64,000 nt of DNA, from contig JACPSJ010000001.1 of NCBI GenBank assembly GCA_016193315.1, positions 791,478-855,477 on the forward strand, written 5' to 3'. The position numbers and the translations under genes are program-made. Position 1 is the first letter of the stretch. Every line of letters starts with the position of its first letter. Under the pieces are notes generated by a model that saw nothing but the letters and a program-made list of their open reading frames with translations, made no database searches and was not told the DNA's origin. This stretch comes from Candidatus Kerfeldbacteria bacterium (GTDB taxonomy: Bacteria > Patescibacteriota > Patescibacteriia > SBBC01 > CAIJZX01). Shown piece by piece: positions 9,220-64,000 of this stretch.

Positions 9220-9926
9220 GGTGTGATCGTGATGCTCCCGGGAGTGGTAGTGTAGTCGATGTTTGTCCGCGTGTCGAAGCTGCCGCTGTTGATGTCGCGC
9301 AGGTTTGCACCATCCTCCTGCGTCGTCCATGTAGATTCGACACCCGCTCTATTGGGCCAACGCGTAACGTAGTCACTCGCGCTCAGCGCTGCCGCCCCAG
9401 GCCAGCTCACCGCGACAGAAATCTTTTGCGTTGACGGATCGTGTCGATTCGACGGCGGCGTGCACGTGACTCCCGTGCCATTGGAGTTGGTGACACCAAC
9501 AATTGCCCCGCTACCGTCTCGACACACGTTCTGCACCCGAAAAGAACGCGTGTAATCGACGCCGTTGATGGAAAGTATTTCAGACCCTTCATTCGACGGA
9601 TGAGAGATTACCCACGCTCCCGAGGGGTAGGTCGGTGGCAGTTGACCAGTATTCTTTATGGGATGATATGGAACATCCTTCTGACGATCAAAGATGTTTA
9701 TCCAGTTTTCGGTTGCGGCCGCATGCACCGCTTCAAAGGTTTCTTGCATCAGACCGTTGGCGACGTTTCTCTCGGTCGCAATCTTGTTCCCCCGCAGGCT
9801 GACGACTACAATCTGACCGCCCGCGCCAAGAATCACCATGGCCACGGCGATGGTAATGAGTATTTCTAGCAGGAGCTGACCGTTCCGGTGTCGATGGTCA
9901 TGCCTGATGGAGGTGCGTATGGCCAC
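9216..9926 (-). CDS. Minor pilin/pseudopilin (PilW/PilV-like)
   Basis: Prepilin-type N-terminus NG|QLLLEILITIAVAMVILG with Glu+5; 236 aa; stop overlaps the start of the giant gene. Confidence 0.55.
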   Translation of the reverse strand: MAIRTSIRHDHRHRNGQLLLEILITIAVAMVILGAGGQIVVVSLRGNKIATERNVANGLMQETFEAVHAAATENWINIFDRQKDVPYHPIKNTGQLPPTYPSGAWVISHPSNEGSEILSINGVDYTRSFRVQNVCRDGSGAIVGVTNSNGTGVTCTPPSNRHDPSTQKISVAVSWPGAAALSASDYVTRWPNRAGVESTWTTQEDGANLRDINSGSFDTRTNIDYTTTPGSITITP

Positions 9927-11691: not shown

Positions 11692-13404
11692 CTATTCTCG
11701 AACCACCCGGACTACCTCATCAAGTGTGGTCACGCCGCGCTCGATCTTCCGCAGCCCATCCTCGAACATAGTAACCATGCCATCCTGCATCGCCCGCTGT
11801 CTAATCTCGCTCGCCGGCGCTCGGCGGATGATCAGTTGGCGAATCGCTTCGGACACTGGCAGGACTTCGAAAATCCCGATCTGTCCTTGATAGCCGGAAT
11901 GACCGCAGACTGAACAACCAGTGCCGGCGAACAACTGGCTGGGTGGTCGAATTGCCACCGGACGACCAAACATTGACAGCTGGGCCGCCAACAAACGTTC
12001 AACTTCCGGCGTTCGTGGCAAGGTGGTGATGCACGAGCGGCAGATCTTCCGCACCAGACGTTGGGCGATGACGAGATTGACCGTTGACGAAACCAGAAAG
12101 GGCTGGGCGCTCATGTCGAGGAGCCGCGGGAATGTTGAGGGCGCATCATTGGTGTGAAGCGTAGTCAAAACCAGGTGCCCGGTCAGGGCGGCGTGAACTG
12201 AGATACCCACGGTCTCGTTATCGCGAATCTCCCCGACCATGAGGATGTCGGGGTTCTGGCGCAGGAGCGACCGCAGGCCGGTGGCAAAAGTAATGCCAGC
12301 TTTGGGGTTGACCTGGGTCTGGTTGACCCGCGCGATCTCGTACTCGATCGGATCTTCAATCGTTGTAATGTTGACCGTCGGGGTATTGAGAATATGCAGG
12401 ATGGCATAGAGCGTAGTTGTTTTCCCGGCGCCGGTCGGTCCAGTGGCCAGGATCATGCCGTGGGGCTTTTGGATTTCTTGCCGGATAGCGGCGGCTTGAT
12501 CGGGCGAGAGTCCCAGGTCCTCCAAGGTGAATGGCCGGTTCGCTGGTTTCAACAGTCGCATCTCGATTTTCTCGCCATGCAAGACCGGTAACACGCTGAC
12601 GCGAATGTCGATTTGCCCACTCCCCAAGTCAACACGAAAGCGGCCGTCTTGGGGTGTCCGGTGTTCATCGATCTGGAGGTTGGCCAAGACCTTCACCCGG
12701 GCGACCAGCGTCGGGGCGATGATTTTGTTCAGGCTAAGAATTTCATGGAGCACGCCGTCAATGCGGTAGCGCACCAGCACCTCCTGGTTCAGCGGTTCAA
12801 AGTGGATATCAGAAGCGTTGAGCACGACTGCGTTTTCGATGATGCTGTCGACGATACTGACAATCGGTACGGCCGCCGCCAGCTTTGATAGGTTGGCTTC
12901 GCCTGAGCTGGGGAGGAAGGTCTTGACTTGTTGTTGGATGACGTCATGAAACTGCTGCCCCATCGACCGCTGGTACTGGGCCAAGCCAAACCGAAGACTG
13001 CTCGGCTTGACGAGATACGGTTCCACCCAAGCATTCAGCTTGACCCGCAAGAACTCGATGGTTTCATAATCAAGCGGATCGACCATCGCCACCTTGACTA
13101 CGTGCCGTGACTGATCGGAGGAGAATGCCACCACCCCGCGGGCTTTGGCCAAAGCCTCAGGAACCAGTTCGAGCGTGGCCGCGGGGATAGTAATCGTCTT
13201 AAGATCAACAACTGGCACACCAAAATACGGCTCCAAAAGCTCAACTAGATACTCCTCAGTTATCGCCCCGCGCCCGATCAAGACCTCAGTGATCGGTTGG
13301 CCCAGCCGCTCAGACTCGGCTGCAGCCTGCTGAAACGTCTGGCGGTCAACCACCCCAGGGGCGGCGGTCAAGATGTTTTCCAGTGCCGGTCTTGAGATGT
13401 GCAC
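11692..13404 (-). CDS. pilB: Type IV pilus assembly ATPase PilB (GspE family)
   Basis: Walker A LATGPTGAGKTTTL, His box, and a C-terminal tetracysteine motif (CRSC...CSVCGHSGYQG); N-terminal GSPII_E-like domain. Confidence 0.9.
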   Translation of the reverse strand: MHISRPALENILTAAPGVVDRQTFQQAAAESERLGQPITEVLIGRGAITEEYLVELLEPYFGVPVVDLKTITIPAATLELVPEALAKARGVVAFSSDQSRHVVKVAMVDPLDYETIEFLRVKLNAWVEPYLVKPSSLRFGLAQYQRSMGQQFHDVIQQQVKTFLPSSGEANLSKLAAAVPIVSIVDSIIENAVVLNASDIHFEPLNQEVLVRYRIDGVLHEILSLNKIIAPTLVARVKVLANLQIDEHRTPQDGRFRVDLGSGQIDIRVSVLPVLHGEKIEMRLLKPANRPFTLEDLGLSPDQAAAIRQEIQKPHGMILATGPTGAGKTTTLYAILHILNTPTVNITTIEDPIEYEIARVNQTQVNPKAGITFATGLRSLLRQNPDILMVGEIRDNETVGISVHAALTGHLVLTTLHTNDAPSTFPRLLDMSAQPFLVSSTVNLVIAQRLVRKICRSCITTLPRTPEVERLLAAQLSMFGRPVAIRPPSQLFAGTGCSVCGHSGYQGQIGIFEVLPVSEAIRQLIIRRAPASEIRQRAMQDGMVTMFEDGLRKIERGVTTLDEVVRVVRE

Positions 13405-15597: not shown

Positions 15598-17472
15598 TCA
15601 GAGGGAATGTGAGGCTCGTGATTCGCCGTGCTCAAATAGGATATCTGCAGTATACCACGGGGCTGGTTGCCTGTTGAACCGTATCGGCTGCCCTTGGGCG
15701 GCTAATCTTGGATACAAAAAGAGCGAGACCTGGGTTGGTCTCGCTCGGGAAGAGGTTGAAAGAGCTGCCGTGCGGATGACTTTCATCCGCACCTTGATCG
15801 TCCCGCTCAGTCGAAAGTGCGGCGCTGCCCCGGGCCGGTCTTCGAGCTGCGGAACGTTGAGCCCGAAGTAGAGTTCCTTGCCCGACGGGTGGGCCGGTTT
15901 GAAAGTCCAGCCAGCGTACCCGACGTACATCGGGTCCGCCGAAAGCCCGTGTCTGAGAAGCAGGGCTCCGGCTGGCAGAGAAGCGCGGATACAGTTGGAG
16001 GCAAACCAGGCGTTGCTATTCTCGGGGGTCACCCGGCAATGCCTTACCGGGTCGATGATGCCGCCAGTGGAAACCTCACCTGGAGCGCCATGCCGGTCGT
16101 AACTGGTGTAGGTGCTGTCCGTCACCAGCCCGGAGACGTACTGGCCGGGTTGCAGGATGACGTGGCTTCGGTACCAACCGATGCCAGCCGGCATCTCCAC
16201 TTCCACCCAGCCGCCGGGGAGGCGACGGATGGGCAGCGGCTCCTGGGGCTCGGGGATGTAGCCGTCCCCGATCTTGCGAGGATTCGGCAACAGTTCGAAC
16301 CCGACCGCCTTGTCCACCGCCGCATTCAGATCATGAACGGGTGCCGTAGTGATTTTCGACCCCCACTCATAATGCTGAACCATCAGCCAGAACAGAGCGA
16401 TGACCAGGGCTAGCAACGCGACCCCGAACAACGTCTGTCCCCACGTCCGGCGACGGTAGTCGCGGATGGGGGGGAACTGGTAGGCCATTCTCCCCGCACC
16501 CGCCGCTGGCTGGCGCGAAAGACGTGCCAGATGGATCGTCCACCACAGCTGGACCACGAAAATCACTGTGGCCAGAGAGCGGATGACCCACGTCAGCCAA
16601 CTGTGAACCTTGGCCGGATCACTGGGCCAGAGCGCATCCTTGAACTCCGGCCACATCAGCCAGAGGGTGATGTCGCCGATCGTGAAGGCAGTGGCCCAGT
16701 TGGTCCACCACCAGAACGGTCCCCGTGCCGGACCCGGCCGGTAGGACACGTGGGTCCAGAACAGCACCGGGATGAGCAGCGCCGCCACGTACTTCATTGG
16801 CGGATGGTTGTGGAATGGCGCCAGAGCGTACCAGAAGGCTCCGATGGAGAAGAACATCGCGATGCGCGCCACGATCTTCCACCATCCGTCGAGCCACTGA
16901 AGGCCGGTCTTCCCGCCGGATAGCAGGAACGACGGAAGGGACCTCAGGTACCCCCACGACAGTTCCTTTTCCCCGATCGCGGTTAAAGCCCCAGCGCCAG
17001 CCCCGACAGCCGCAACCAACGGCGCCAGCTTGGCCCACCCGAACATCGCCAAGAGCGACACCGCCACCAGATCCCACATCATCCACCAGGCCCGGTCGTC
17101 GATCTGGTTGAACCTCGTGATCCACATGATACCGGCCATGCCCAGTCCCAGTAGCAGGACCAGGCCCCAGATCACGCACCGTCGCAGGAGGATGTACGAC
17201 CGCATCGACCAGTCGTAGACCCGAGCGGCGATCTGCTCGCCATACTGCATCCGCGCATAGTGGTAGAACTCGGTGATCAGGTCTCGCCCCTCGCGGGTCA
17301 AGACCAACGGGATCAGCGCGACGGCGCCGACTCCGTATGGCGCCAACTTCTTGATTGCCGCGATGACCTCATCCTTGATTTCATCGAAGAAGGCCCAGAA
17401 GCCGGTGGCCGTCCTGGCCGCCGTCCCTTCGGGCTGGTTACCCTGCGGGGTCCTCGGATTCTGATCAGCCAT
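15598..17472 (-). CDS. Hypothetical Trp-rich polytopic membrane protein (~12 TM) with a ~240-aa C-terminal extracytoplasmic domain
   Basis: 624 aa; many hydrophobic helices rich in Trp (GPFWWWTNWATAF, WWKIVARIAMFF); no recognisable catalytic motif. Start overlaps the stop of the upstream gene by 8 nt. Confidence 0.55.
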   Translation of the reverse strand: MADQNPRTPQGNQPEGTAARTATGFWAFFDEIKDEVIAAIKKLAPYGVGAVALIPLVLTREGRDLITEFYHYARMQYGEQIAARVYDWSMRSYILLRRCVIWGLVLLLGLGMAGIMWITRFNQIDDRAWWMMWDLVAVSLLAMFGWAKLAPLVAAVGAGAGALTAIGEKELSWGYLRSLPSFLLSGGKTGLQWLDGWWKIVARIAMFFSIGAFWYALAPFHNHPPMKYVAALLIPVLFWTHVSYRPGPARGPFWWWTNWATAFTIGDITLWLMWPEFKDALWPSDPAKVHSWLTWVIRSLATVIFVVQLWWTIHLARLSRQPAAGAGRMAYQFPPIRDYRRRTWGQTLFGVALLALVIALFWLMVQHYEWGSKITTAPVHDLNAAVDKAVGFELLPNPRKIGDGYIPEPQEPLPIRRLPGGWVEVEMPAGIGWYRSHVILQPGQYVSGLVTDSTYTSYDRHGAPGEVSTGGIIDPVRHCRVTPENSNAWFASNCIRASLPAGALLLRHGLSADPMYVGYAGWTFKPAHPSGKELYFGLNVPQLEDRPGAAPHFRLSGTIKVRMKVIRTAALSTSSRARPTQVSLFLYPRLAAQGQPIRFNRQPAPWYTADILFEHGESRASHSL

Positions 17473-50152: not shown

Positions 50153-53100
50153 CTAGGGCCGGAGGGCATAATTAAAGCAGGAGCAGTTGCTGCCAGGAAT
50201 GCCGCTGCACGGGTTCGACCCCGGGGCATTGATAAAGTTGCCGGGACGGGTGTACTGCATGTTGGCGTAGAGAGTGTACGTGCGGCCGTCGGATTGGTAA
50301 GCATAAATGGTTGAACCGGACGGGCATTGAAAGGCCTTCCGCAGCTCCGACCAACAGCTGTCGGCTTCATAGCGGTCGTCAACCGAGACCTCCGGCGGCT
50401 TGCATTCCGGAATGAAAACATTGGCCGGATCTTCGGGCAGCGCCCGTCCCAGGGCGTTCCCCAGCGTCTGTTGCCAGGATGGCCAGCGCGAGGTCGACAT
50501 CCCGATCAGGAACGACCCGGCGGTTAGCTTCGGATATTCGTCGTTCTCCTCGTGGTAGTCTTTCAGGGCGGCCTTTATTGCTGCCAGGTCTTGAACGCGC
50601 CTGGTGTCGTCGCGGAGAATCGGGCGCCAACCGGCTCCCGGCAAGTTGGTGTTAAATACCACGGAGTTGATCATCTGATTGAAAATGTTCTTCGTTTCCG
50701 GTGCGGCCGCGTTGGAGTTGTAGTCGATAACGAAGATGAAGCCTTCGAGCGGTCCGCCGTCAGTGATATCGGTCACCCCGATGTAGGCGGTGGTGCCAGT
50801 CCGAAACGCCGGGTAGCCGCCGATGGTGGTCGAACTGCCACCGCTGTCGAGCGGAAAACGTTGACGAAACCACTCGTACGGCGGGAGCAAGTCCGGGTTG
50901 CGATAGATAAGCAACCCGATGACGTCACGGCTGGTGGCCGATTCTTTAAAGAACATGCTCTTGACCCGATTAGGGTCGGCGGCATTCTGACCTTCGATGA
51001 CGCCGAGCCGACCATTTGAACCGGTGTAAATGAAATCGGGGAGCAGCGGCCCGCCGCTTTTCCCCCGGCAGTAGGACATGGTGAAATGGTAATCCGGACA
51101 CGGTGCCCGGCTGTCGCAATTGCCGACGGCGTCGGTAAAGCCGCTCTGGTCGGCATCGACGTAGGCCCATGGGTTCTCACAGAAATCAACAATAGCATCG
51201 GCGTCACCGCAAATCTTTTTACCCTCGTCGCTGCCAACGCTGTCCTCCGTCACATTGGCGCAGGCCTGAATCGTCGTCGCACCATTGGCGCGGGCGGTAA
51301 CGTTGGCAAACGTGAAGTTCCGGTCATCGGGCCCGGCCATCGATGCGCTGGCCACGCCCTCATTGCTGCTCTTCCAGCCCCACTTCCAGGCGTAGACGCC
51401 GGGCACATTGCTGACTCCCTCACCGCGCTCCGATAGGGCCCCGGCCCAAAAAAAATGGACTTCATCCTGGGCGGAAAATCGCCAAAAGTTCGGGCTCACT
51501 TGGATGTCGGCCACCCGACAAATGCTATCGCCGGTTGTATAGGTTATCGGACTGGTGATCGCGCTCGTGGTAACGTTGGCCCGAACGCCGTTCGTCCCGC
51601 GGATGAGCGTATCCCCACCGTAAGTGATTTTTTCGACTTTGATATCATCGCACCAGGTCTTGGCGCCCCACCAAGCGTAGCAGTCAATATGCAATTTCGA
51701 GGCCGGGAAAGCGCGATTCGTTTTGGCCACCACGACTTCAATGAATTTCCATCCACCCGAGGGACCGGAGAACACTCCTGGGGCGGCGTCAACGAGATCG
51801 AAACCGCAGTTATTGAAATCGTGACAGACGACAATGAGCCCATTTTTTTTGCCTGGCGTCGACCCCTCAACTTTGACCCAGCCGGTGACGCGGTAGAGCA
51901 CATCAAAGTCTTCCGTCCCATCAATCGTTTGCGCCTCCCATGATTGATCCCCGGCCGGGCAACCGCTGCAGTCCGCAAAGCCGGAAAATCCGGTGTGGTC
52001 GGGTGGAACGTCTCGGGACTGCTTCCCGTTTCGGTTACCCCAGATGGTCGGGACGCCATTGACATCGGCCTCCTCAAAGCTGGGATTGCCGAACGCAAGG
52101 ACCGTTGTCGTGCTGCGGGTCGTCAGGTGGAACGTTTGGAGCGCGCTCGGGGACAGGATGCCGGGGCTGTAGAGTAACCGCCCACTCGAACCGTCATTGA
52201 GAACACGGGATGAGCCGAACACAACGCGACCCTTATCGAGGTACTGAACCGTCTCGCCGGTGACTGAGGCTTCATCGATCGGCTGGTCGAACGTCACCTC
52301 GAGGCGGGTGTTGCGACAGATGCCCGTCGCCCCGTCGGCCGGACTGGTACCACTGATCGTTGGCCGGGGCCGGCAGCAGAAGTCGCGAGCGCAGCCATAA
52401 TCTTCGGTGGAGTATTCCGGCGCGCAGTGGTCGTCGATGGCGCAGCGCTTGGTGGTGCAGCTCAACGCGCCGGGATCGCTGACTTCGAACGGCCAGGGGT
52501 TTGAGCCGACGTCTTCGTTCTTCACTCGTACCTCGCTCGGACCGACGGCCGCGTCGGTCGGGATCTGGGTGCCAATCTTGGTGTCTTCCCAGCTAGCGTA
52601 GGTTGACATGATCGCCAGGGAGCCCGAGCCAAGGTGAATAATATTGGCCTGGTCATGATCGGTCCGCTTCGCCGGTTCGTCGTCGCCGAAGCGGGCGCCG
52701 CTCGCGGTCACGCCGGTCAAGATCGGGCCCCGCGTTGGGTTGAGGCGACAAAGGCCAGGCGTGAGGGCGTCACTGTTGACCGTGAAATCCGGCCCGTCAG
52801 CCTGCCGGTCGTCGAAACGGTTCACCCTGACCGGGCCGCTGACGGCGTCGTCGCCGCCATCGGGCGTGCTGCGGTTCGGGACCTCGCGAACGATCCGCTC
52901 GTTGGTCCACGTTGCCGCCGGTGAGAGACAAATATCAGAATCGGGGGCAATTCCTTCGCGATCGTCGGCATCACCGGCGGCCCCGAGGAAGATGACCTTG
53001 CTCTTGGCGCCGTCGTAGCCACCGAACCAGCAGCCTTTGACCGTTGTCCAGGTACCAATCGGGCCGGCGGTGGGGTCAAGTCCGTTGACCACCGGCGTGC

Positions 53101-56100
53101 ATCGATTATCCTCGCAGGTGGATCCTGGACAAGCTTCCCCGAAGCGGTTCGTCCGGCAGTCATCGCTCGATCGACACGAGGTCGGATCATAAAGAATGCG
53201 CACCGCGCGGGAGGTTTTTCCCTCCGTAGCCACGGTCGTGTCCGTTGATCCGCCCGCCACCGGATCCGCCGGATTAAACGCTAGCACGCTCCGACCAGAG
53301 CGGCCACTCAGTTCGGCGGCATCGCTATTATTGGTATCCCAGGCATAAGTCAAGCTGCCGGCATCCAGCAGGCGGCATTCCGCATCCAGCGGCTGGGCGC
53401 TCATGTTGACACCATACGGCGTCTCCCGGAAAGTGTAGCTGATCGGACTGGCCGCCACCGCGGTGCCAAAGGCGACCGAGGAATTGATGACTACGCTGGC
53501 GATCGGGCACGGTGCGCCGTCGGCCTTGGTGGTAAACTGCCATACATACGGACCGGCCAGTGGGATGTCGGTTGCGCTTTTGACCCCGGTGGTAATCGAG
53601 GCTTGGTAGTTCGTGGAGGCGGACAGGCCGCCGGTCGGATGGAGGCTGCAGCCTGGATCGCATTTCTCCAAGTAGATGTTGCCGGTAGTGAAGGTGGTGG
53701 TATTCATGTCGACCGTGAAACGGGCCGTGACGTCGCTGTTCAAACAGACGTCGACATCTGACCGGCGGGGGCTCGGGCTCGGCAAGATGCCACCCTCAAG
53801 ATCGCAACTTGCTTCTTCCGCCACTCGCGGCGTCGTGTCTCCTGGTCCGGCCGGAGCGGTGACTGAGTAGGGCAAAGCATTACTCACGGCACCATCGCCT
53901 CGCCGGACGGTCAGGAGCGCGCTCAGCGGCGCCGGCGTAGTGGCTGGGATCTGAGCATTTCGAATCTGTTCTTCTGACCAGGTCGCCGCGCTGACGTTAC
54001 CGAGTTTCGGTGGTGGCGCCGGCGAGAATAAGACGGCACTGTTGCCGGGGTCGTAGCTGCCAAAACGTTTACCGCCCAAGGTGGTGTAAGACTCCGGGGG
54101 ACCGCTATTGGGAGTAACGGACAGCAAGCACACCCCGTCGCTACCATCGCCGGCCTGGAGAAAGAGGTTTTCCTCGTTGCTTTCCAACGGACCGATCGGA
54201 TCATCATACTTGACGGTCACCTTGTATGGATGCGTTTTGTCGAACTCACCGGCGTCGAACGGCGGGTCCGGCGTTGTCACCTCGGACACGATAACGTTAT
54301 TCTGCCAGCCCAGCACCGGCTGATCGGTCCCCTCGAGTTGAACAATGTCGCCGGGGTTCTGCCCATCGCTCTCTCGCACGGCCGCTCCCGGCGGCTTCTT
54401 CTCGAAGTAATTGCCGACCACGGAGACGCAAGCTCCAGTTTGTCCGCTACTGGGGTCTAGGCGATCAATGTATGGCGGCTGGACGCAGCTTTCGGCCGTA
54501 CCGGTGGTAAAGCTCCAGGTGCGGCTGAGTTTCGTGCCTTCACGATCGATGACCAGATCGGTATTGACCGTGGCCGTATGTGGCGTCTCCGGGCTAAGCA
54601 GCAGCGTCTCTGGCACAAAGCCGTACTTCGTACAACTCCGTTCTGGATGTTCTGAATCGAGCGGGTCGAGCACCCGAAAGCCGCGGCCCGGATTCGGGGA
54701 CAAGGTCCCGTCGCGAACCAGGCTGCCACCGCCAGGTTCGCAGTCTGGTTCGCCGATCTTCCACATCGAAGTGGCGAACTTGACGAACACTTCGCTGGCA
54801 GGACAGATGGTCCCGGCCAAGGGGTAAACGAATTTAATGCCAGCCACGACATCGTTCGTTTCAAACACCCATTCGTACGGTGTCGCCTGTTTCGTGCCGC
54901 ACAGGGAATAGAAATCCTTAGCCACAATCTTGTACCACGTAAACGGCTCGAGGCGGACGCCGTCTTTGAGCTGCAGCCAGGCGCCGGTGCCGAACGGCTC
55001 GACCGTGTAATCACTAGACGGGAGCGGCGTCGGATCAACCGTCCCGCCGGTACCATCATCCGGATCCGGCGCCGTGGTAAACTTGAATAGTTGAATATTG
55101 TCATTCGTCACCAGGTTCGTGTCAATGGCGTTGTTGAATTCAACCTTGAACGGATATCGCTCGCGGTCGACGTTGCGGTCCGGTTTGCCGACCCCGGTGA
55201 GGTAGGTCGAGCTTGGCAGCGTTGACGATGCTTCTAGCGCTGGACCGGACACATCGGTGCCCACGCTGAAGGTCCAGTAAATCAAGTTGTTTGTCTCGTC
55301 CACCTTGCAATTTTCGCCTGGCACAGCATCCCCCTCGATCGGTTCACCAGCGCTGTTGCGCTGACACTTCTGCAGCGTTCGGCCCGGATCAGTCGTGTCT
55401 TTGATGGCGGTGGGGGCGTCGCGGGCCGGAACGATCAACCGGTAGGTGGTGTTGGTGGCGAACCAGCGGTTGTCCGGGCTGGCTTCATCCTCGCTGAACG
55501 AACGATGGTAAAAAGTGATAGCTTTGCCCTTGGCTACCCACTCGGCTTTGGTGTCGCCAGCCGCGCCAGTCGGCCGGTCGCCGGAGAAAACCTGGGGGCT
55601 GATCTTGCTGCCAGCTGGCAGACTAAACTCGCCGTCTTCGCAAATGTCATCGCCTACGCCGTCGCCTCTGACATCACTACACTCCAAAATCACCAGATTG
55701 GGATCGCCATCGGCCAAGTCGTCCTCCACCGCCGCTCTGACGGTGTCGATATCCAGATCGTGGTTGAAGTACAAGGCCGCGGCGCTCGAGCGCGGCACGT
55801 TGGTGTCGTAATCCGGACGGACGGCACAGGTGGTGACGCCGGTCAGGTCGAACGTCCGTTCGCCCGACCCCAGACAGCCGAAACCGACGCAGCCACCGCC
55901 GCGATCGCTATTGCTGCTGGTCGTCACCCGCTGGAACGTCCGGACGACAAAGAAGACGATCGCCCAGGCCAGGAGAATAATCACTAGGCCGATGAGCGCC
56001 TGCAGAATGACTTCTTTCGCCTTCTCCACCCGCTGCTCGTTGCCGCCGGCGGTCAGCCACAAGTAGCCACCATAGATGAGATAGGCCACCGCCACCAGGG

Positions 56101-56320
56101 TCACCAAGCCGAGCAGGATGCGGATGAGATTGATGATGACCTGCCGCAGGTCGGCGCTGCCCAAACCGATCCGGCTGCCGATCGACTCGACGCTAAAGGT
56201 GGTCGCCGTTTGGGCCGAGACCGTGCCGCTGGCAAAGGCCCACCAGCCGAGCAGCAGGCCGGCCACGAGCACCCCAGTCACGAGCAGGGCGCGTCGGTTC
56301 ATCCCAGGCAAGGCGGACAT
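50153..56320 (-). CDS. Giant (2,055 aa) Cys-rich surface protein with an N-terminal TrbC/VirB2-like (T4SS-pilin-like) two-helix domain and multiple Ig/IPT-like extracellular domains
   Basis: After a signal peptide, the segment VIINLIRILLGLVTLVAVAYLIYGGYLWLTAGGNEQRVEKAKEVILQALIGLVIILLAWAIVFFVV has the helix-loop(GN..AK)-helix layout of conjugative pilins. About 1,900 aa follow, with many Cys pairs and repeated IPT-like starts (DRLDPSSGQTGAC.., VNGLDPTAGPIG..). The C-terminal ~150 aa are Cys-paired and globular. Confidence 0.7.
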   Translation of the reverse strand: MSALPGMNRRALLVTGVLVAGLLLGWWAFASGTVSAQTATTFSVESIGSRIGLGSADLRQVIINLIRILLGLVTLVAVAYLIYGGYLWLTAGGNEQRVEKAKEVILQALIGLVIILLAWAIVFFVVRTFQRVTTSSNSDRGGGCVGFGCLGSGERTFDLTGVTTCAVRPDYDTNVPRSSAAALYFNHDLDIDTVRAAVEDDLADGDPNLVILECSDVRGDGVGDDICEDGEFSLPAGSKISPQVFSGDRPTGAAGDTKAEWVAKGKAITFYHRSFSEDEASPDNRWFATNTTYRLIVPARDAPTAIKDTTDPGRTLQKCQRNSAGEPIEGDAVPGENCKVDETNNLIYWTFSVGTDVSGPALEASSTLPSSTYLTGVGKPDRNVDRERYPFKVEFNNAIDTNLVTNDNIQLFKFTTAPDPDDGTGGTVDPTPLPSSDYTVEPFGTGAWLQLKDGVRLEPFTWYKIVAKDFYSLCGTKQATPYEWVFETNDVVAGIKFVYPLAGTICPASEVFVKFATSMWKIGEPDCEPGGGSLVRDGTLSPNPGRGFRVLDPLDSEHPERSCTKYGFVPETLLLSPETPHTATVNTDLVIDREGTKLSRTWSFTTGTAESCVQPPYIDRLDPSSGQTGACVSVVGNYFEKKPPGAAVRESDGQNPGDIVQLEGTDQPVLGWQNNVIVSEVTTPDPPFDAGEFDKTHPYKVTVKYDDPIGPLESNEENLFLQAGDGSDGVCLLSVTPNSGPPESYTTLGGKRFGSYDPGNSAVLFSPAPPPKLGNVSAATWSEEQIRNAQIPATTPAPLSALLTVRRGDGAVSNALPYSVTAPAGPGDTTPRVAEEASCDLEGGILPSPSPRRSDVDVCLNSDVTARFTVDMNTTTFTTGNIYLEKCDPGCSLHPTGGLSASTNYQASITTGVKSATDIPLAGPYVWQFTTKADGAPCPIASVVINSSVAFGTAVAASPISYTFRETPYGVNMSAQPLDAECRLLDAGSLTYAWDTNNSDAAELSGRSGRSVLAFNPADPVAGGSTDTTVATEGKTSRAVRILYDPTSCRSSDDCRTNRFGEACPGSTCEDNRCTPVVNGLDPTAGPIGTWTTVKGCWFGGYDGAKSKVIFLGAAGDADDREGIAPDSDICLSPAATWTNERIVREVPNRSTPDGGDDAVSGPVRVNRFDDRQADGPDFTVNSDALTPGLCRLNPTRGPILTGVTASGARFGDDEPAKRTDHDQANIIHLGSGSLAIMSTYASWEDTKIGTQIPTDAAVGPSEVRVKNEDVGSNPWPFEVSDPGALSCTTKRCAIDDHCAPEYSTEDYGCARDFCCRPRPTISGTSPADGATGICRNTRLEVTFDQPIDEASVTGETVQYLDKGRVVFGSSRVLNDGSSGRLLYSPGILSPSALQTFHLTTRSTTTVLAFGNPSFEEADVNGVPTIWGNRNGKQSRDVPPDHTGFSGFADCSGCPAGDQSWEAQTIDGTEDFDVLYRVTGWVKVEGSTPGKKNGLIVVCHDFNNCGFDLVDAAPGVFSGPSGGWKFIEVVVAKTNRAFPASKLHIDCYAWWGAKTWCDDIKVEKITYGGDTLIRGTNGVRANVTTSAITSPITYTTGDSICRVADIQVSPNFWRFSAQDEVHFFWAGALSERGEGVSNVPGVYAWKWGWKSSNEGVASASMAGPDDRNFTFANVTARANGATTIQACANVTEDSVGSDEGKKICGDADAIVDFCENPWAYVDADQSGFTDAVGNCDSRAPCPDYHFTMSYCRGKSGGPLLPDFIYTGSNGRLGVIEGQNAADPNRVKSMFFKESATSRDVIGLLIYRNPDLLPPYEWFRQRFPLDSGGSSTTIGGYPAFRTGTTAYIGVTDITDGGPLEGFIFVIDYNSNAAAPETKNIFNQMINSVVFNTNLPGAGWRPILRDDTRRVQDLAAIKAALKDYHEENDEYPKLTAGSFLIGMSTSRWPSWQQTLGNALGRALPEDPANVFIPECKPPEVSVDDRYEADSCWSELRKAFQCPSGSTIYAYQSDGRTYTLYANMQYTRPGNFINAPGSNPCSGIPGSNCSCFNYALRP

Positions 56321-59066: not shown

Positions 59067-59789
59067 TTAAGTCGCCGCGGGCGACGGTAACGGATAGGTC
59101 GGCGTCTGGAACGTTTGGGCGCGATAGATCGGCCAGGCCCGGACGGCTGTTCGGCCGACGATGGCCCGTCGCTCAATCGGACCGAACGTCCGTGAGTCGA
59201 GGCTGGCGGTCCGATTGTCGCCGAGGACGTAATATTCTTCCACCCCCAAAGTCACCTCGGTGTGCCCGGGCGTGAACGACCCGGACGACAGGTAGGCGGA
59301 CTCATCGAGCGCCTGCCCGTCCGGATGGACCGCATCGAAAACCGTGATTCGCCCGTCGGCAATCAGCAGTCGGTCAGCCGGCAAGCCAATAATCCGCTTG
59401 ATGAAGAACTCATCTGGTTGAAACGGGTTGCGGATGACGACTACGTCCCCCCGACGTGGGTCATGGAGCCGGTACGACAGTTGATCGACGATCAGGTATT
59501 CGTTGTTCCGAAAGGTCGGTTCCATCGACGCCCCCTTGACATAGAACGGTTGCAGCAGAAAAGCATGGATGGGTTTGATGATCAGCAGGGCAATGATGAT
59601 AATCTTGGCCACCTCGATCACAAAGCCGCCGAATGAACGACTAAAGCTCGGCAGGAATTCTGATTTCTTGGTTGACTCGGCTAGTTTCTGAAGGTTGGTG
59701 CGGTAGCCGCGAAAGGCACGGGGGTCACCGAGCGGATTGTCCTGAGCGCCGTGCGTTTCTTGTTCTTCTTCTTTCTTCCGGATAGGCAT
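59067..59789 (-). CDS. lepB: Signal peptidase I (S26)
   Basis: Catalytic Ser box KGASMEPT and Lys box (VLGDNRTASLDSR). The track start (59843) overlaps the tRNA; the internal start MPIRKK at 59789 is preferred. Confidence 0.8.
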   Translation of the reverse strand: MPIRKKEEEQETHGAQDNPLGDPRAFRGYRTNLQKLAESTKKSEFLPSFSRSFGGFVIEVAKIIIIALLIIKPIHAFLLQPFYVKGASMEPTFRNNEYLIVDQLSYRLHDPRRGDVVVIRNPFQPDEFFIKRIIGLPADRLLIADGRITVFDAVHPDGQALDESAYLSSGSFTPGHTEVTLGVEEYYVLGDNRTASLDSRTFGPIERRAIVGRTAVRAWPIYRAQTFQTPTYPLPSPAAT

Positions 59790-59831: not shown

Positions 59832-59908
59832 TGGTGGTCGCACCTGGACTCGGACCAGGGACCTTACGGATGTGAACCGTACGCTCTAACCAACTGAGCT
59901 ATGCGACC
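59832..59908 (-). tRNA. tRNA-Val (anticodon CAC), CCA encoded
   Basis: Manual fold of the minus strand: GGTCGCA-TA-GCTC-AGTTGGTTA-GAGC-G-TACGG-TTCACAT-CCGTA-AGGTC-CCTGG-TCCGAGT-CCAGG-TGCGACC-A-CCA. All four stems are perfect Watson-Crick, with U8, U33, A37 and GG in the D-loop. Confidence 0.8.
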
Positions 59909-60821
59909 GCCGACAGGCGGGTATGCCCAGTGGCGGCGGACTGCTGACCGAACTTATCTGACTGCCCGCCACGCTCCGGTGGCAGCGACGATGGTGAGAA
60001 TAGACAGATCTAGAACTCATTTCAAAACCTGCTTTCAGGGCGAAATGGCAGATTTCGCGGGCGCGGCGCCGCGGCGGAGGGTGAAATGTATTGGAGATAC
60101 ATTGAACCCGAGCCGCCAGCCGGAGCCCGAAATCGGGCCTGGCAGCCGAACGCAGGTCTTCCCACATGATCGGCCAGGAGAACTTCGATTGCCCATGTTG
60201 ACGATCGCGGAACATGAGCGGAACTTCAACCATCCTGGCTAGCAACCGCTTCGCCTGCCACTTCATCTCGATCAGGCAGGCGTACCCGACTGTCTGCGCC
60301 GGTTGCGCCAATACCTGACGAAGTATCCCCGCCCGCCAAGCGCAGTAACCAGAGCTCCAGTCGTGGAGCTCTGGTCCGAGCAGCCGACGGAGGTACCAAT
60401 TGCCGACCAGGCTGATGACTTGCCGGTACCAAGGGATGCGGATGGCTCCGCCGGGCACGTAGCGCGAGGCTACCACCAGCTCGGTCGTGCCGAGCTGGTT
60501 GATCATCGCCGGGATCAATTCCGGATCATGCGATTGGTCAGCATCGAGATGGATGATCTTCGTCGCCCCACGGTCTAGGGCCAGCGACAGGCCCTGACGG
60601 TAGGCCGGACCAAGCCCTGTTTTCTCGGGTCGGTGGAGAACCGCCAGTCGCGGCCAGCGCGACCGTAGCGTCTCAGCCAGTTGTCCGGTGCCGTCGGGTG
60701 AATGATCGTCGACCACGAGCACAAAAAGATCGGGGTGCTGAAAAAGTTTTGTCACCATCGGTTCGAGATTTGGCCGCTCGTTGTACGTCGGCAGAACTAC
60801 CCAGGTCGGCATTGGTCTCAA
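59886..60821 (-). CDS. Family 2 glycosyltransferase, polyprenol-phosphate sugar transferase type (DPM1/GtrB-like)
   Basis: VVLPTYNERPNL, VVDDHSPDGT and DADQSHDPE motifs. The last ~70 aa are Arg/Ser-rich, and the 3' end overlaps tRNA-Val by 23 nt, so the true C-terminus may be earlier (a frameshift or an annotation artefact). Confidence 0.7.
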   Translation of the reverse strand: MRPMPTWVVLPTYNERPNLEPMVTKLFQHPDLFVLVVDDHSPDGTGQLAETLRSRWPRLAVLHRPEKTGLGPAYRQGLSLALDRGATKIIHLDADQSHDPELIPAMINQLGTTELVVASRYVPGGAIRIPWYRQVISLVGNWYLRRLLGPELHDWSSGYCAWRAGILRQVLAQPAQTVGYACLIEMKWQAKRLLARMVEVPLMFRDRQHGQSKFSWPIMWEDLRSAARPDFGLRLAARVQCISNTFHPPPRRRAREICHFALKAGFEMSSRSVYSHHRRCHRSVAGSQISSVSSPPPLGIPACRRSHSSVG

Positions 60822-60863: not shown

Positions 60864-62264
60864 TCAGGAAGCGAGCGGCGGCGGGCTAGGCGCGGTCGGT
60901 GGCGGGCTGAACGGGCCGGTGGCCGCGTCGTGGCCGAGATTCTGATGAATCAGCTTTTCGGCCCGGCGAATTTCTTCCATTTCTCGTTGCAAGGCGGCGG
61001 CCTTCTTCCGCGCGTCCCGTTCCAGCGTCTCCAAGTCGCGGCGGAAGGTGGTTCGAATCCGCACCCGTCGCAAGACCCAGTAGCCGGTACTCGCCGCCAC
61101 CAGAACGCCCAGCCCGATAATCATGGCGTTGGCAACGGCAGGATTATTGAGTAAGGGGATCCGCGCCAGGAACGGTAAGGCGCCGGCGACGACCCGTAAT
61201 GTGACTGCCCCCTCAGTGGCATTACCGGCGCGGTCAACGGCTCGGACAATGAACGTGTATTTGCCGGCTGGATGCGGCTGAATGGTGTAGGGGCTGATGG
61301 CCTCGACGAACAGTGTGTCCCCGCCCCGACCATCGCCTGGTACCTCCTTGACTTCGTAATGATCCAGCCCGGAGGCGGCGTCACTGGTCAGGAAGCTGAG
61401 GAGAACCGTGTCTTCCTTGGTCGCCACCTCGTGATCGAGATGGGGAGAAAATTCGGCCGGCGGGCTAGTATCGATCCGGACGGTGTAGGTCGTCACCCCG
61501 CCCCAGATTTCGGCCTCGGCCCGGAGATGGAAGTACCAAATGCCGTCGGACTTCGTCTTGACCGTCGTCGCCGTGGAGGTGGTATCGACTTCTTCATCAG
61601 GTATGCCTTTCGGGTTTTGGTCGAAAGAAAAACTGTAACCGGTGATGCCGGACAGACCTTCCCAGGTGAACTGAATGCTTGGGTTATTGTACCACTGGTT
61701 GCTGTCCGGGTGGGATGGGCTGTTGACCACCGGGCCGGCTGGCGGCGGGTTCTTGAGGGTGTATTCGGCGCTGCTGGTGGCGGTCAGAATATTAGTCCCC
61801 TCGGCGTCATTGCGCAGCACCTGCGACGTCGGGGCGTACTTGATAATGGCCTTGCCAGCCGACTTGACACGGAAGGTAACGGTGCTGACAACGCCGGCGT
61901 TGGTTCGGATGCCGGGGTTCGGCAGGCCGCCTTGAAAACTGATGGTGCCGTCAGTGTTTGAGTAGGTCGGTGAGGTTACCCAGACGGTCACAAAGGAGGT
62001 GCTGGCCACCGGATTAACCACCTGGAGCTTGTCCGGCGGGAACAAAACGTCGGCGCTGATGGCGTTGACCGCATCACCGCCGGTATCGAGCACGAACGAC
62101 ACGTCGACCAGACTGCCGACTTCAAAGATACCAGAGCTGGGGGAGACTTTCAGGCTGGCCGCCGACTCTTGCGCCCACAAACGTACTGGCACCAGCCACC
62201 AGGCCAGGCCGAACACGGAGATGAACGAAATGGTGGCCCATGATCTTCTATCCATTGCCGTCAC
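60864..62264 (-). CDS. Membrane-anchored surface protein with an N-terminal cohesin-like domain, Ig/FN3-like domains, a C-terminal TM helix and a charged cytoplasmic tail
   Basis: Signal peptide; SLKVSPSSGIFEVGSLVDVSFVLDTGGDAVNAISADVLFPPDKLQVVN fits the cohesin beta-sandwich pattern; C-terminal TM AMIIGLGVLVAASTGYWVL then RRVRIRTTFRRDLE... The cohesin call is moderate. Confidence 0.5.
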   Translation of the reverse strand: MTAMDRRSWATISFISVFGLAWWLVPVRLWAQESAASLKVSPSSGIFEVGSLVDVSFVLDTGGDAVNAISADVLFPPDKLQVVNPVASTSFVTVWVTSPTYSNTDGTISFQGGLPNPGIRTNAGVVSTVTFRVKSAGKAIIKYAPTSQVLRNDAEGTNILTATSSAEYTLKNPPPAGPVVNSPSHPDSNQWYNNPSIQFTWEGLSGITGYSFSFDQNPKGIPDEEVDTTSTATTVKTKSDGIWYFHLRAEAEIWGGVTTYTVRIDTSPPAEFSPHLDHEVATKEDTVLLSFLTSDAASGLDHYEVKEVPGDGRGGDTLFVEAISPYTIQPHPAGKYTFIVRAVDRAGNATEGAVTLRVVAGALPFLARIPLLNNPAVANAMIIGLGVLVAASTGYWVLRRVRIRTTFRRDLETLERDARKKAAALQREMEEIRRAEKLIHQNLGHDAATGPFSPPPTAPSPPPLAS

Positions 62265-62300
62265 GGTACGAACGACTGTCAGTATACCAGGATTCCGTTC

Positions 62301-63527
62301 CTATGGCGACGAGCGCCGTGCGACGCGGACGATGAACCACCCGGCCGCGGCCATGATCGCGGCCAGTCCAGTTATCCAGATGGCTACCGAAAAAAATGCC
62401 GGGCCGCGCCGGGGCGGTAACCAGCTGGCCACCCGCATATTGCCCGCGCCGTCGACGGCGGTGATGGTAATCGTCTGGTCTTGCCACTCGGGTCGGATTC
62501 GGAGCGGACTCGCCACACGACCGGCCGGCTGACGGTTGACGGTCAGGAGCTGCGCCTCAACTCCGGACATTGCATCGGACACCTGCCAGGCCAGCACGGC
62601 CTGCTGGCCGACGGTGTCCGGATCGAGCAGCCGGAGACTGAAGGCTGTCGGTGGCGTACTGTCGAGGAGAAATCGACGCTGGGTTAAGTCAGTCCACAAC
62701 CCCCCGCTGGTGCGGCGCTTGATGGAAAAGTAGTAGACCCCATCCGCCAGGGCCGGGTACGATCGTTGCCCGATTTGAGATTCGGGGACGTCATCTGGGA
62801 CACCAGTCATATCGGAATCGAAGACATAACTGTACTCGGTTTCGGCGGCCACGGCCCAGTGCACTTCCACTGCCTGTCCGGTCGACCAGGTCCGTGGATC
62901 AGGATGAGTGGTCGACTCGAGCGGAATGCCGGTCACGAAATCACTGGCCAGGTCAAGTTCGAGCGGCGCCGAGCCGACGCTCAGTGGGCTGGCCGCTTCA
63001 TCGTGCCGATAGACTCGAGATCGGTCCAGGTCGAGCATGAAAACTACGTGGCCGCTCTGCCGCGCGCGAAAATACAGCGTCGCCACGGTCGCGTCGACGG
63101 CATAGATTCCCCCCGGACGACCGGCCACCAGCGTCATGGTGCCGACCGGATTGGTCCACTGCGGTTCCTCCGGCCAGAGGGTGAAGATTGATTGCTCGCG
63201 CCCCACCCGCAGGACTTCCAGGCTGTCGGCTGGGTAGGCGATGAACAGGTCGGCGGCATTAACACTCTGCCCTTGGCTGTTGAGACGAACTTCAACGGTG
63301 AACACCTGTCCGAGTTTGACCAGGCCGCGCGGACCGACGAGCTGGATCTCCGGCCGCGGCGCTTGGGCCGCGACTAACGGTGGCCAGAGGCCGATGACCA
63401 AGCCGGCCCCCACCACGAATGAGGAATATCGAGATATTTTACGGCCGCGGCGAAGCCCGGCAGCCCGAAATTCCGAGCCGCCGCGCCGGAATGGATTTTT
63501 AGGATGGGTTCTAATCAGTCGGTCCAT
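62301..63527 (-). CDS. Paralogous membrane-anchored surface protein with a cohesin-like domain
   Basis: EIQLVGPRGLVKLGQVFTVEVRLNSQGQSVNAADLFIAYPADSLEVLRV parallels the N-domain of 60864..62264; same architecture with a C-terminal TM (FFSVAIWITGLAAIMAAAGWFIV). Confidence 0.5.
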   Translation of the reverse strand: MDRLIRTHPKNPFRRGGSEFRAAGLRRGRKISRYSSFVVGAGLVIGLWPPLVAAQAPRPEIQLVGPRGLVKLGQVFTVEVRLNSQGQSVNAADLFIAYPADSLEVLRVGREQSIFTLWPEEPQWTNPVGTMTLVAGRPGGIYAVDATVATLYFRARQSGHVVFMLDLDRSRVYRHDEAASPLSVGSAPLELDLASDFVTGIPLESTTHPDPRTWSTGQAVEVHWAVAAETEYSYVFDSDMTGVPDDVPESQIGQRSYPALADGVYYFSIKRRTSGGLWTDLTQRRFLLDSTPPTAFSLRLLDPDTVGQQAVLAWQVSDAMSGVEAQLLTVNRQPAGRVASPLRIRPEWQDQTITITAVDGAGNMRVASWLPPRRGPAFFSVAIWITGLAAIMAAAGWFIVRVARRSSP

Positions 63528-64000
63528 TGGAAAAGCATAATGCTGAAATCAACAATCGCCACTCGACCATCCTGGTTAATGTCCGCTCGCGGATTCTCTG
63601 GGCTGGTGTCTTGCCAGAAGTACAGCAGGATGCTGAAGTCAGTGAGATCTACTCGTCCATCTCGGTTCAGGTCTGACGCGGCCAACTCGGCCGGTCGTCC
63701 ACCCGGGCTGACCGTCAGCGTGGCGGTCCGACTTGGTTTGGACTGACCGCCATCGGGGGCGACGGCCACCGCTACGAACGTGTGGCTGCCGACACCGAGG
63801 CTGGCGGTGTTGAGGGACATGGTCCAGTGCCCAAGATCGTTCGCCGCGGCCGTGAATTTCCTGGCCCCAGGGGCGGCGGTCACGGTTATCAGGCTGCGCG
63901 GTACGGTCCGGCCATTAACCGTGACCAACGCGCCGAGCCGCTTGGCCCCCTGATCCAGACTGATGGTCGGACCGAGGAATATTCCCGACACGAGGGTGGT
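63515..64000 (-). CDS. Dockerin-domain protein (C-terminal part; N-terminus beyond the window end)
   Basis: Two canonical type-I dockerin Ca-binding repeats at the C-terminus: DLNRDGRVDLTDFSILLYFW and DINQDGRVAIVDFSIMLFQW. The ORF continues past position 64000. Confidence 0.65.
   Translation of the reverse strand, partial: TTLVSGIFLGPTISLDQGAKRLGALVTVNGRTVPRSLITVTAAPGARKFTAAANDLGHWTMSLNTASLGVGSHTFVAVAVAPDGGQSKPSRTATLTVSPGGRPAELAASDLNRDGRVDLTDFSILLYFWQDTSPENPRADINQDGRVAIVDFSIMLFQWTD

Follow-up and report, generated by a model that had tools for sequence, protein, structure and literature searches.

A cohesin–dockerin gene trio proposed to anchor a Pam-type pilus in Candidatus Kerfeldbacteria

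What would a dockerin and two cohesins be doing side by side in a bacterium of the candidate phyla radiation (CPR, Patescibacteria), the very large and mostly uncultured radiation whose members live attached to other microbes? The question is raised by three adjacent genes at one end of a 64,000 nt stretch of a Candidatus Kerfeldbacteria bacterium (GCA_016193315.1, JACPSJ010000001.1, positions 791,478–855,477, forward strand), referred to here as the window. To our knowledge the cohesin–dockerin module is known almost only from cellulosomes and its function elsewhere has been open since 2009, the year in which Peer et al. reportedly described cohesins and dockerins outside cellulosomes in many lineages. 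How CPR bacteria build and hold surface filaments is likewise only starting to be understood. The three genes encode a dockerin protein (Dock) and two paralogous membrane proteins with N-terminal cohesin domains, CohB and CohA, and a first-pass annotation of the window had taken them for a surface scaffold in the style of a cellulosome. On balance we favour another reading, in which the trio would serve not to dock enzymes but to anchor a Pam-type donor-strand-exchange pilus of the CPR cell at its cell-proximal end.

Domain identity of Dock, CohB and CohA

The Dock gene lies on the minus strand and continues past the end of the window, which holds the C-terminal 161 codons and the stop (63515–64000), coding for the second immunoglobulin (Ig)-like domain and the dockerin. 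The last section of the reading frame runs DLNRDGRVDLTDFSILLYFW...DINQDGRVAIVDFSIMLFQWTD and the translation ends with ...ASDLNRDGRVDLTDFSILLYFWQDTSPENPRADINQDGRVAIVDFSIMLFQWTD before the stop. The dockerin module itself (63518–63685, minus strand) is made up of two repeats of a calcium-binding loop and a helix, DLNRDGRVDLTDFSILLYFW and DINQDGRVAIVDFSIMLFQW, each of 22 residues and with their starts 30 residues apart. Both repeats, in DLNRDGRVDLTD and DINQDGRVAIVD, fit the EF-hand-like calcium loop D-x-[ND]-x-D-G-x-[VI]-x-x-x-D, and both obey the narrower form D-x-N-x-D-G-x-V-x-x-x-D. The loop Asp residues are invariant amongst 31 orthologues, the alignment of which also has invariant D, S, I and W columns. 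Pfam Dockerin_1 (PF00404, cut-off 22.9 bits) matches residues 106–152 in two stretches with 42.0 bits (E = 1.1e-10), and Big_13 and Big_6 give weak matches to the fragment. Although a single-sequence phmmer search of the PDB with the fragment gave no match, the profile of the Dock family succeeded, matching the type I dockerins 4fl4, 2y3n, 1daq and 5nrm_B of cellulosomal enzymes. Judged by profile and loop consensus this is a genuine dockerin, as the first-pass annotation had recognised from its two type I repeats.

In L005, L006, L008 and L010, the four long contigs of relatives that were used for synteny (the letter L denotes related contigs and P homologous proteins), the orthologues of Dock are 280–444 aa long, and the fragment in the window is 45–52% identical to their C-terminal halves. 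Behind the signal peptide they have a short conserved strand or a pilin N-domain, then a Pro-rich spacer, a pair of Ig-like domains and, last, the dockerin. No catalytic domain or carbohydrate-binding module (CBM) was found on these orthologues, which bears out the earlier suggestion of a setting outside the cellulolytic context. Searched exhaustively with phmmer, the 161-residue fragment gave 777 cluster representatives at E ≤ 1e-10, with no 100% identical match there or in a word-indexed homology search; in about 135 of the 145 best representatives fetched the dockerin is at the extreme C-terminus, behind several types of N-terminal domain. Amongst these proteins (P0362–P0506) the Ig-Ig-dockerin cassette is joined to at least two unrelated N-terminal families, one being the X-type pilin N-domain described below and the other of the 'SDxLSTSxP..NHTIxF..IPxSGKIxITP' type. 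Some of the representatives contain Cys-rich EGF-like inserts, and a few (P0364, P0368, P0386, P0433 and P0503) have 7–14 tandem dockerin-like repeats.

The two genes that follow, CohB (62301–63527, minus strand; 408 aa, MBI2984856.1, HYY50_04505) and CohA (60864–62255, minus strand; 463 aa, MBI2984855.1, HYY50_04500), have exact records as 'hypothetical protein' of a Candidatus Kerfeldbacteria metagenome-assembled genome, on a contig of 857 kb. They are paralogues, with 27% identity over 395 aa (BLASTP, E = 1e-32), and both have a hydrophobic segment at the N-terminus and a membrane segment towards the C-terminus, so that the paralogous membrane-anchored proteins of the earlier description are indeed there. 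CohA matches Pfam Cohesin (PF00963) with 24.8 bits, marginally above the cut-off of 24.1. A hidden Markov model (HMM) of the CohA N-domain finds CohB with an E-value of 1e-16, and with the Pfam model the L005 orthologues of CohB and CohA reach 26.1 and 30.1 bits, and CohC, a third cohesin protein there, 29.0 bits. All of the homologues come from Patescibacteria or unlabelled metagenomes, and for many of 120 homologues a PF00963 match is precomputed.

An AlphaFold2 model of CohA, built from a 49-sequence alignment and with a mean pLDDT of 87, predicts a signal helix, a beta-sandwich at residues 33–168, two beta domains at residues 190–356 and a long helix from residue 361 that includes the membrane span. 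Foldseek matches this model to the type I cohesins 6kge, 6kgf, 5nrm, 4dh2, 2vn6, 4uyp and 1g1k as single domains of about 150 columns, with TM-scores (target) of 0.69–0.79, root-mean-square deviations of 2.4–3.7 Å and E-values of 1e-9 to 1e-7 (TM 0.71–0.79 and 2.4–3.2 Å for the first five); most of these cohesins were crystallised together with their dockerins. Generic multi-Ig matches were also returned. The predicted cohesin of CohA would then be encoded at nt 61752–62159, with the Ig-like domains (190–356) and a membrane helix at about residues 373–395 behind it. Searched against the PDB, the sequence profile of the CohA family gave only a sub-threshold cohesin match, 5g5d (E = 0.12); its matches to antibody V-domains are chance matches to the middle domain, and the fold search was needed. 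CohB consists of a signal peptide, a divergent cohesin at about residues 67–186, two Ig-like domains, a membrane helix at about residues 377–399 and an 8-residue tail. Taken together, the profiles and the predicted fold identify both N-domains as genuine cohesins, CohB by way of its paralogy to CohA and its L005 orthologue, while the binding of cohesin to Dock is itself a prediction. The check that had been proposed with PF00963 and PF00404 thus came out in favour of both domains.

Charged cytoplasmic tails had been ascribed to both membrane proteins. This applies in full to CohA only, where the tail is about 68 residues long (396–463), the first 45 or so forming a charged Arg/Glu-rich helix with a Pro-rich end behind it; the tail of CohB has eight residues. 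The CohA tail is encoded at 60867–61070 (minus strand), and its helix is conserved across the family, with the consensus RRxRxRxxFxHDLxxLExDAxxK...L..EL, and has no counterpart in CohB; it may serve in oligomerisation or bind a partner in the cytoplasm.

With custom HMMs only one dockerin and two cohesins are found in the whole 64 kb, and since these are adjacent the trio is more than a chance assembly. The stop of Dock and the start of CohB overlap by 13 nt, at the same position in the window, L005, L008 and L010, an arrangement that indicates translational coupling of the dockerin and cohesin genes; a scan of 59–64 kb for promoters and terminators was uninformative. Because the Dock and CohB genes are adjacent and apparently coupled, a pair that docks at the surface is the most economical reading, and to this extent the surface scaffold that was first proposed stands. 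The catalytic or adhesive cargo that was to go with it is not supported, the Dock orthologues having no enzyme domain, each anchor a single cohesin and each locus one dockerin.

A putative pilus gene cluster in related genomes

In L005, L006, L008 and L010 the genes stand on one strand in a fixed order: a giant protein (2,889–4,380 aa, with Laminin_G_3 or beta-helix domains), the secreted proteins X1 and X2 (about 330–400 aa each), Y (about 325–356 aa), Dock, CohB, CohA and often CohC. The frequency of this arrangement was counted over 83 loci, 79 from a metagenome scan and the four contigs themselves, scored with custom HMMs. Of 50 loci with room, 43 have a dockerin module upstream of the first detectable cohesin at a distance of at most 900 nt. 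In 23 of 26 loci the gene for Y is upstream of the dockerin by no more than 2.6 kb, and in 13 of 20 a Pam C-terminal domain, belonging to X or the giant, is found on the upstream side of Y. Complete arrays have 2–7 cohesin genes on one strand. Loci of the Kerfeldbacteria type continue with a family 2 glycosyltransferase (GT2), tRNA-Val(CAC), signal peptidase I, the histidyl-tRNA synthetase HisRS, HIT, S21 and YqeY, followed by a protein of some 2,000 aa in which T4SS_pilin and Big_5 domains are combined. Since the downstream genes of the window are in the same order as those of the relatives, the upstream pilus genes very likely lie just past position 64000 in this genome too. Exact look-ups in that direction gave only Logan contigs of 2–3.5 kb, and a scan of genome contigs gave one match of 26 residues, a spurious one in an unrelated metagenome-assembled genome. 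Being past position 64000, this putative pilus cluster, of which the trio forms the last part in the relatives going by gene order, was missed by the first-pass annotation.

The assignment to a pilus starts from X1 and X2, which match the NCBIfam model NF058581 (CPR_Pam_pilin_C, cut-off 55 bits) with E-values of 1e-11 to 1e-19, one above and three below the cut-off, and one of them also has a weak match to PamT. The highest scoring is the X protein of L006, at 71.1 bits. The C-terminal 150 or so residues of the giants are 52–66% identical to those of X1 and X2, and in the giants of L005 (1–6669), L008 (1–4274), L014, L016 and L022 this Pam-type domain is preceded not by the pilin linker strand but by a conserved Cys segment, C...DASDGTNxDxGNxPCW[LF][IV]N. 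Y has the features of a membrane-tethered PapD-like chaperone, as seen in the relative locus L005 (L005:9002–9991; homologues P0241–P0360), where it starts with a signal peptide and is anchored by a predicted membrane helix at the C-terminus. In its structure model (pLDDT 92) two beta domains are followed by the C-terminal helix, at residues 289–323, and the best structural matches are the E. faecium WxLIP structures 9i1y and 9i25 and the chaperones CfaA, CsuC, Caf1M, DraB and FimC of chaperone–usher systems. Several members of the Y family match PF06030 (DUF916/WxLIP_PGBD), and NCBI names one of them a DUF916 protein. Neither regular expressions nor HMMs revealed hidden dockerins or cohesins in the giant, X or Y, and the pilin N-domain, considered as a cohesin-like partner for the dockerin, shows no relation by hhalign.

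Dock is linked to the pilins by a strand motif. In the X proteins the linker just before the acceptor domain reads DDQVSVTATVD, DDQVVVSAVVD or DDSVAVSATVD, and the mature 280-aa Dock proteins have VSVTATVP at the N-terminus, directly behind the signal peptide (family consensus VxVTATV). Scanned as the regular expression V.[VI][ST]A.[VI], the strict motif is present within residues 10–60 of 14 of the 40 full-length Dock proteins of about 280 aa and never further along, and in the Coh and Y proteins, 97,674 residues in total, it occurs once. In L008, L012 and L027 Dock has a complete pilin N-domain that ends in the motif, the Ig-Ig-dockerin part replacing the acceptor domain; the N-domain of the L008 protein is 46–51% identical to X1 and X2. 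The CohA proteins of two of these loci are close to that of the window, with 65% identity for L008 and 66% for L012 (best tblastn segment). A whole pilin N-domain ending in the motif is found in 13 of 145 library representatives of Dock. The motif was not found before the C-terminal domain of the giants, and Dock has no acceptor domain. From this distribution of motif and acceptor domain, the cluster would comprise a subunit that can only accept a strand (the giant), subunits that both accept and donate (X1 and X2) and one that can only donate (Dock), in keeping with a tip, shaft and terminator logic.

A proposed anchor and its alternatives

The system that most resembles this one is the Pam pilus, reported in June 2026 for one cultured Saccharibacterium, Ca. 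Mycosynbacter amalyticus (preprint, bioRxiv 10.64898/2026.03.03.709456). According to the same source, each Pam pilin combines an N-domain and a linker donor strand with a truncated Ig-like acceptor domain at its C-terminus, the tip subunit is limited to the acceptor domain, the chaperones are PapD-like and tethered by a C-terminal membrane helix, and PamR, with an N-terminal strand, two fibronectin type III domains and a membrane helix, is proposed as filament terminator and membrane anchor. The locus would share with this CPR-specific pilus the logic of pilin, tip, chaperone and terminator (NF058581, NF058579). It differs in that PamR is terminator and anchor in one, whereas here the proposed terminator, Dock, has a dockerin at its C-terminus and separate cohesin proteins, in 2–7 paralogues, carry the membrane helix, and in that the putative tip is a giant of about 2,900–4,400 aa. 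No PamR-like single protein was found in the cluster; the pilin linker motif is on Dock and the membrane helix on the cohesin proteins, a division that would suit the function of PamR but not membership of its family. A search of the Coh, Y and Dock proteins with the NCBIfam models for other Pam parts (PamR, PamC/D and the N-domain model) gave no match. By analogy, Dock together with CohB or CohA would probably divide between separate polypeptides the combined role that was proposed for PamR. Cohesin, dockerin and Kerfeldbacteria go unmentioned in the preprint.

In the model that we propose, the proteins would be exported by the Sec pathway and their signal peptides cleaved, with membrane-tethered Y holding the acceptor domains of the pilins. 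The giant adhesin, which ends in a Pam-pilin acceptor domain, would start the filament as its tip, and X1 and X2, with N-domain, linker strand and acceptor domain, would extend the shaft with the help of Y. From here on we infer the steps: Dock, with a donor strand and no acceptor domain, would donate its strand into the last pilin, and its incorporation would cap the proximal end and stop growth. Its calcium-binding dockerin would plug into the N-terminal cohesin of CohB or CohA, each of which is predicted to stand on two Ig-like stalk domains above a single membrane helix. PapH of Pap pili donates a strand and accepts none, so that it ends growth and marks the base, and the terminator logic of Dock may be seen as analogous. 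Unlike in chaperone–usher pili, there is here no outer membrane and no usher, and anchoring is proposed to proceed through a separate docking pair.

The likeness to cellulosomal type I pairs (C. acetobutylicum CohA2–Doc0917, 6kge; A. cellulolyticus ScaB–Cel5, 5nrm; C. thermocellum OlpC, 4dh2) extends to the cohesin beta-sandwich fold and the duplicated 22-residue calcium loop and helix, the two repeats being near-symmetric as in dockerins with a dual binding mode. Sequence identity to them, on the other hand, is 12–22%, the locus lacks enzymes, CBM and multi-cohesin scaffoldin, anchoring is by a membrane helix and not by SLH domains or sortase, and the helix of the dockerin has the signature D-F-S-I-[LM]-[LM]-x-x-W with an invariant Trp. 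The WxL/WxLIP (DUF916–DUF3324) clusters of Firmicutes (PMC10599100; 9i1y, 9i25) resemble the locus in the fold of Y, which is nearest to WxLIP, and in combining small and large secreted proteins that have a common C-terminal domain with a membrane-anchored two-domain partner. They differ in that no WxL motif was found here and that WxL proteins are described as bound to peptidoglycan and not as forming filaments. With WxLIP the nearest fold to the modelled Y, the WxL clusters and the Pam-type pili of CPR may be one superfamily. We know of no cohesin or dockerin in WxL clusters.

That the trio might instead be a minimal cellulosome-like complex for degrading polysaccharides is suggested by nothing beyond the domain names and the nearby GT2 gene, and GT2 is a biosynthetic enzyme and not a hydrolase. 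With each Coh protein holding one cohesin, a single dockerin in 64 kb, neither Dock nor its orthologues carrying a catalytic domain or a CBM, and a CPR bacterium of small genome as the host, we regard this as extremely improbable, and the cellulosome-style picture of the first-pass annotation is not supported; within the window there is no multi-cohesin scaffoldin, no dockerin-tagged carbohydrate-active enzyme and no CBM. More would speak for a stand-alone surface display, in which docking to the membrane cohesins would put the small Ig-Ig-dockerin protein on the surface as a decoration or adhesin, apart from the pilus genes, the adjacency reflecting no more than a shared neighbourhood of envelope genes. 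Such a display would be compatible with the identities of cohesin and dockerin, with their tight coupling, with the occurrence of non-cellulosomal cohesin–dockerin pairs in many lineages and with L006, where the Dock and Coh genes are beside other downstream genes. It does not explain, however, why Dock and Coh almost never occur without Y just upstream (23/26), and the sharing of the pilin linker motif, or of a whole pilin N-domain, is hard to understand for an independent decoration, so that a display of this kind seems quite unlikely.

A further alternative is that the cohesin-fold proteins are an assembly platform, substituting for an usher, or variable adhesins that bind the host, with the dockerin acting as a calcium-dependent stabiliser or as a binder of glycans or cell wall. 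The number of cohesin copies, 2–7 per locus, and the low identity of the paralogues to each other, only 25–35%, would fit such a role, as would the conserved cytoplasmic helix of CohA, for which a passive anchor has no obvious need; an essential dockerin-domain envelope protein of a Saccharibacterium has also been speculated to target host glycans (PMC10633639). CohA orthologues, though, are 57–66% identical across genomes, unlike a fast-evolving adhesin that determines host range, the N-domain is structurally best matched by cohesins that were crystallised with dockerins, and the single dockerin gene is always immediately upstream and coupled to them in translation. This would seem unlikely on present evidence, and the pilus anchor remains the reading that we favour. 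Several observations weigh against the anchor as well. Only about one-third of the Dock proteins have the strict motif, about two-thirds showing looser variants; CohB of the window has no Pfam cohesin match of its own, the 26.1 bits being those of its L005 orthologue; and the X proteins of L005 and L008, the closest relatives, score 43.6–47.5 bits (E = 1e-11 to 1e-12) against the NF058581 cut-off of 55. The 2–7 cohesin paralogues are set against one dockerin per locus, the complex of Dock and Coh is predicted from adjacency and translational coupling only, and the pilin, chaperone and giant genes of this genome very likely lie beyond position 64000 on the strength of synteny with relatives.

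No paper linking cohesin or dockerin to CPR pili was found in the searchable literature, and neither was a dockerin-tagged terminator pilin with single-cohesin membrane receptors in a pilus cluster, although cohesins and dockerins outside cellulosomes and the Pam pilus are each known. The locus suggests that other classes of CPR build a related pilus that is fastened by a cohesin–dockerin plug, and it offers a concrete function for two large families annotated as 'hypothetical proteins'. The two modules, which are small and predicted to be soluble and dependent on calcium, could supply natural orthogonal cohesin–dockerin pairs for protein engineering. A wider and more doubtful proposal, which we put forward tentatively, is that in a large part of the Patescibacteria a cohesin–dockerin pair is the standard coupling between a donor-strand-exchange pilus and the cytoplasmic membrane, with the 2–7 paralogues as a hetero-oligomeric basal platform that replaces usher and PamR, and the Ig-Ig-dockerin cassette as a portable anchor tag fused to several pilin N-domains unrelated to each other. 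If true, this would be the first cohesin–dockerin pair with an organelle-anchoring role, and the Pam pili of CPR and the WxL/WxLIP clusters of Firmicutes would be linked as one superfamily.

Neighbouring genes in the window

The trio belongs to a continuous run of minus-strand genes at 59–64 kb, and the GT2 gene and tRNA that had been noted beside it are both there. The GT2 gene (59886–60812, minus strand) encodes a protein resembling polyprenyl-phosphate sugar synthases, assigned from NCBIfam and Pfam GT2 matches and from synteny. The product of this conserved gene may glycosylate the pilins; a modification on a pilin serine is described for the Pam pilus (bioRxiv 10.64898/2026.03.03.709456). 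Its reading frame of 309 codons overruns the tRNA-Val gene, the orthologues being 229–237 aa in length, and the Logan contig L002, from the same population (99.94% identical over 3360 nt), diverges at the same point and stops at 230 aa. Either a strain variant or a difference in assembly may account for the 3' end of GT2 in the window.

The tRNA-Val (CAC) gene (59832–59908, minus strand) is in a conserved position between GT2 and signal peptidase I, being found there in all of the Kerfeldbacteria-type loci examined (L005, L008, L010, L014, L016 and the window). Signal peptidase I (59067–59789, minus strand; TIGR02227, 127 bits), also a conserved neighbour, would uncover the N-terminal strand of Dock and also act on the cluster's other secreted proteins. 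The HisRS gene is next in the window. Further along, 50153–56320 (minus strand) encodes a protein of 2055 aa that has a T4SS_pilin domain at its N-terminus as well as Big_5 repeats, and which in L005, L008 and L010 has the same relative position after S21 and YqeY. Towards the other end of the window two long reading frames on the minus strand, 2911–9330 (2139 aa) and 15598–17472 (624 aa), have no Pfam match at E ≤ 1e-3; a PilB-like T2SSE ATPase is encoded near them, at 11692–13404, which suggests a type IV pilus region.

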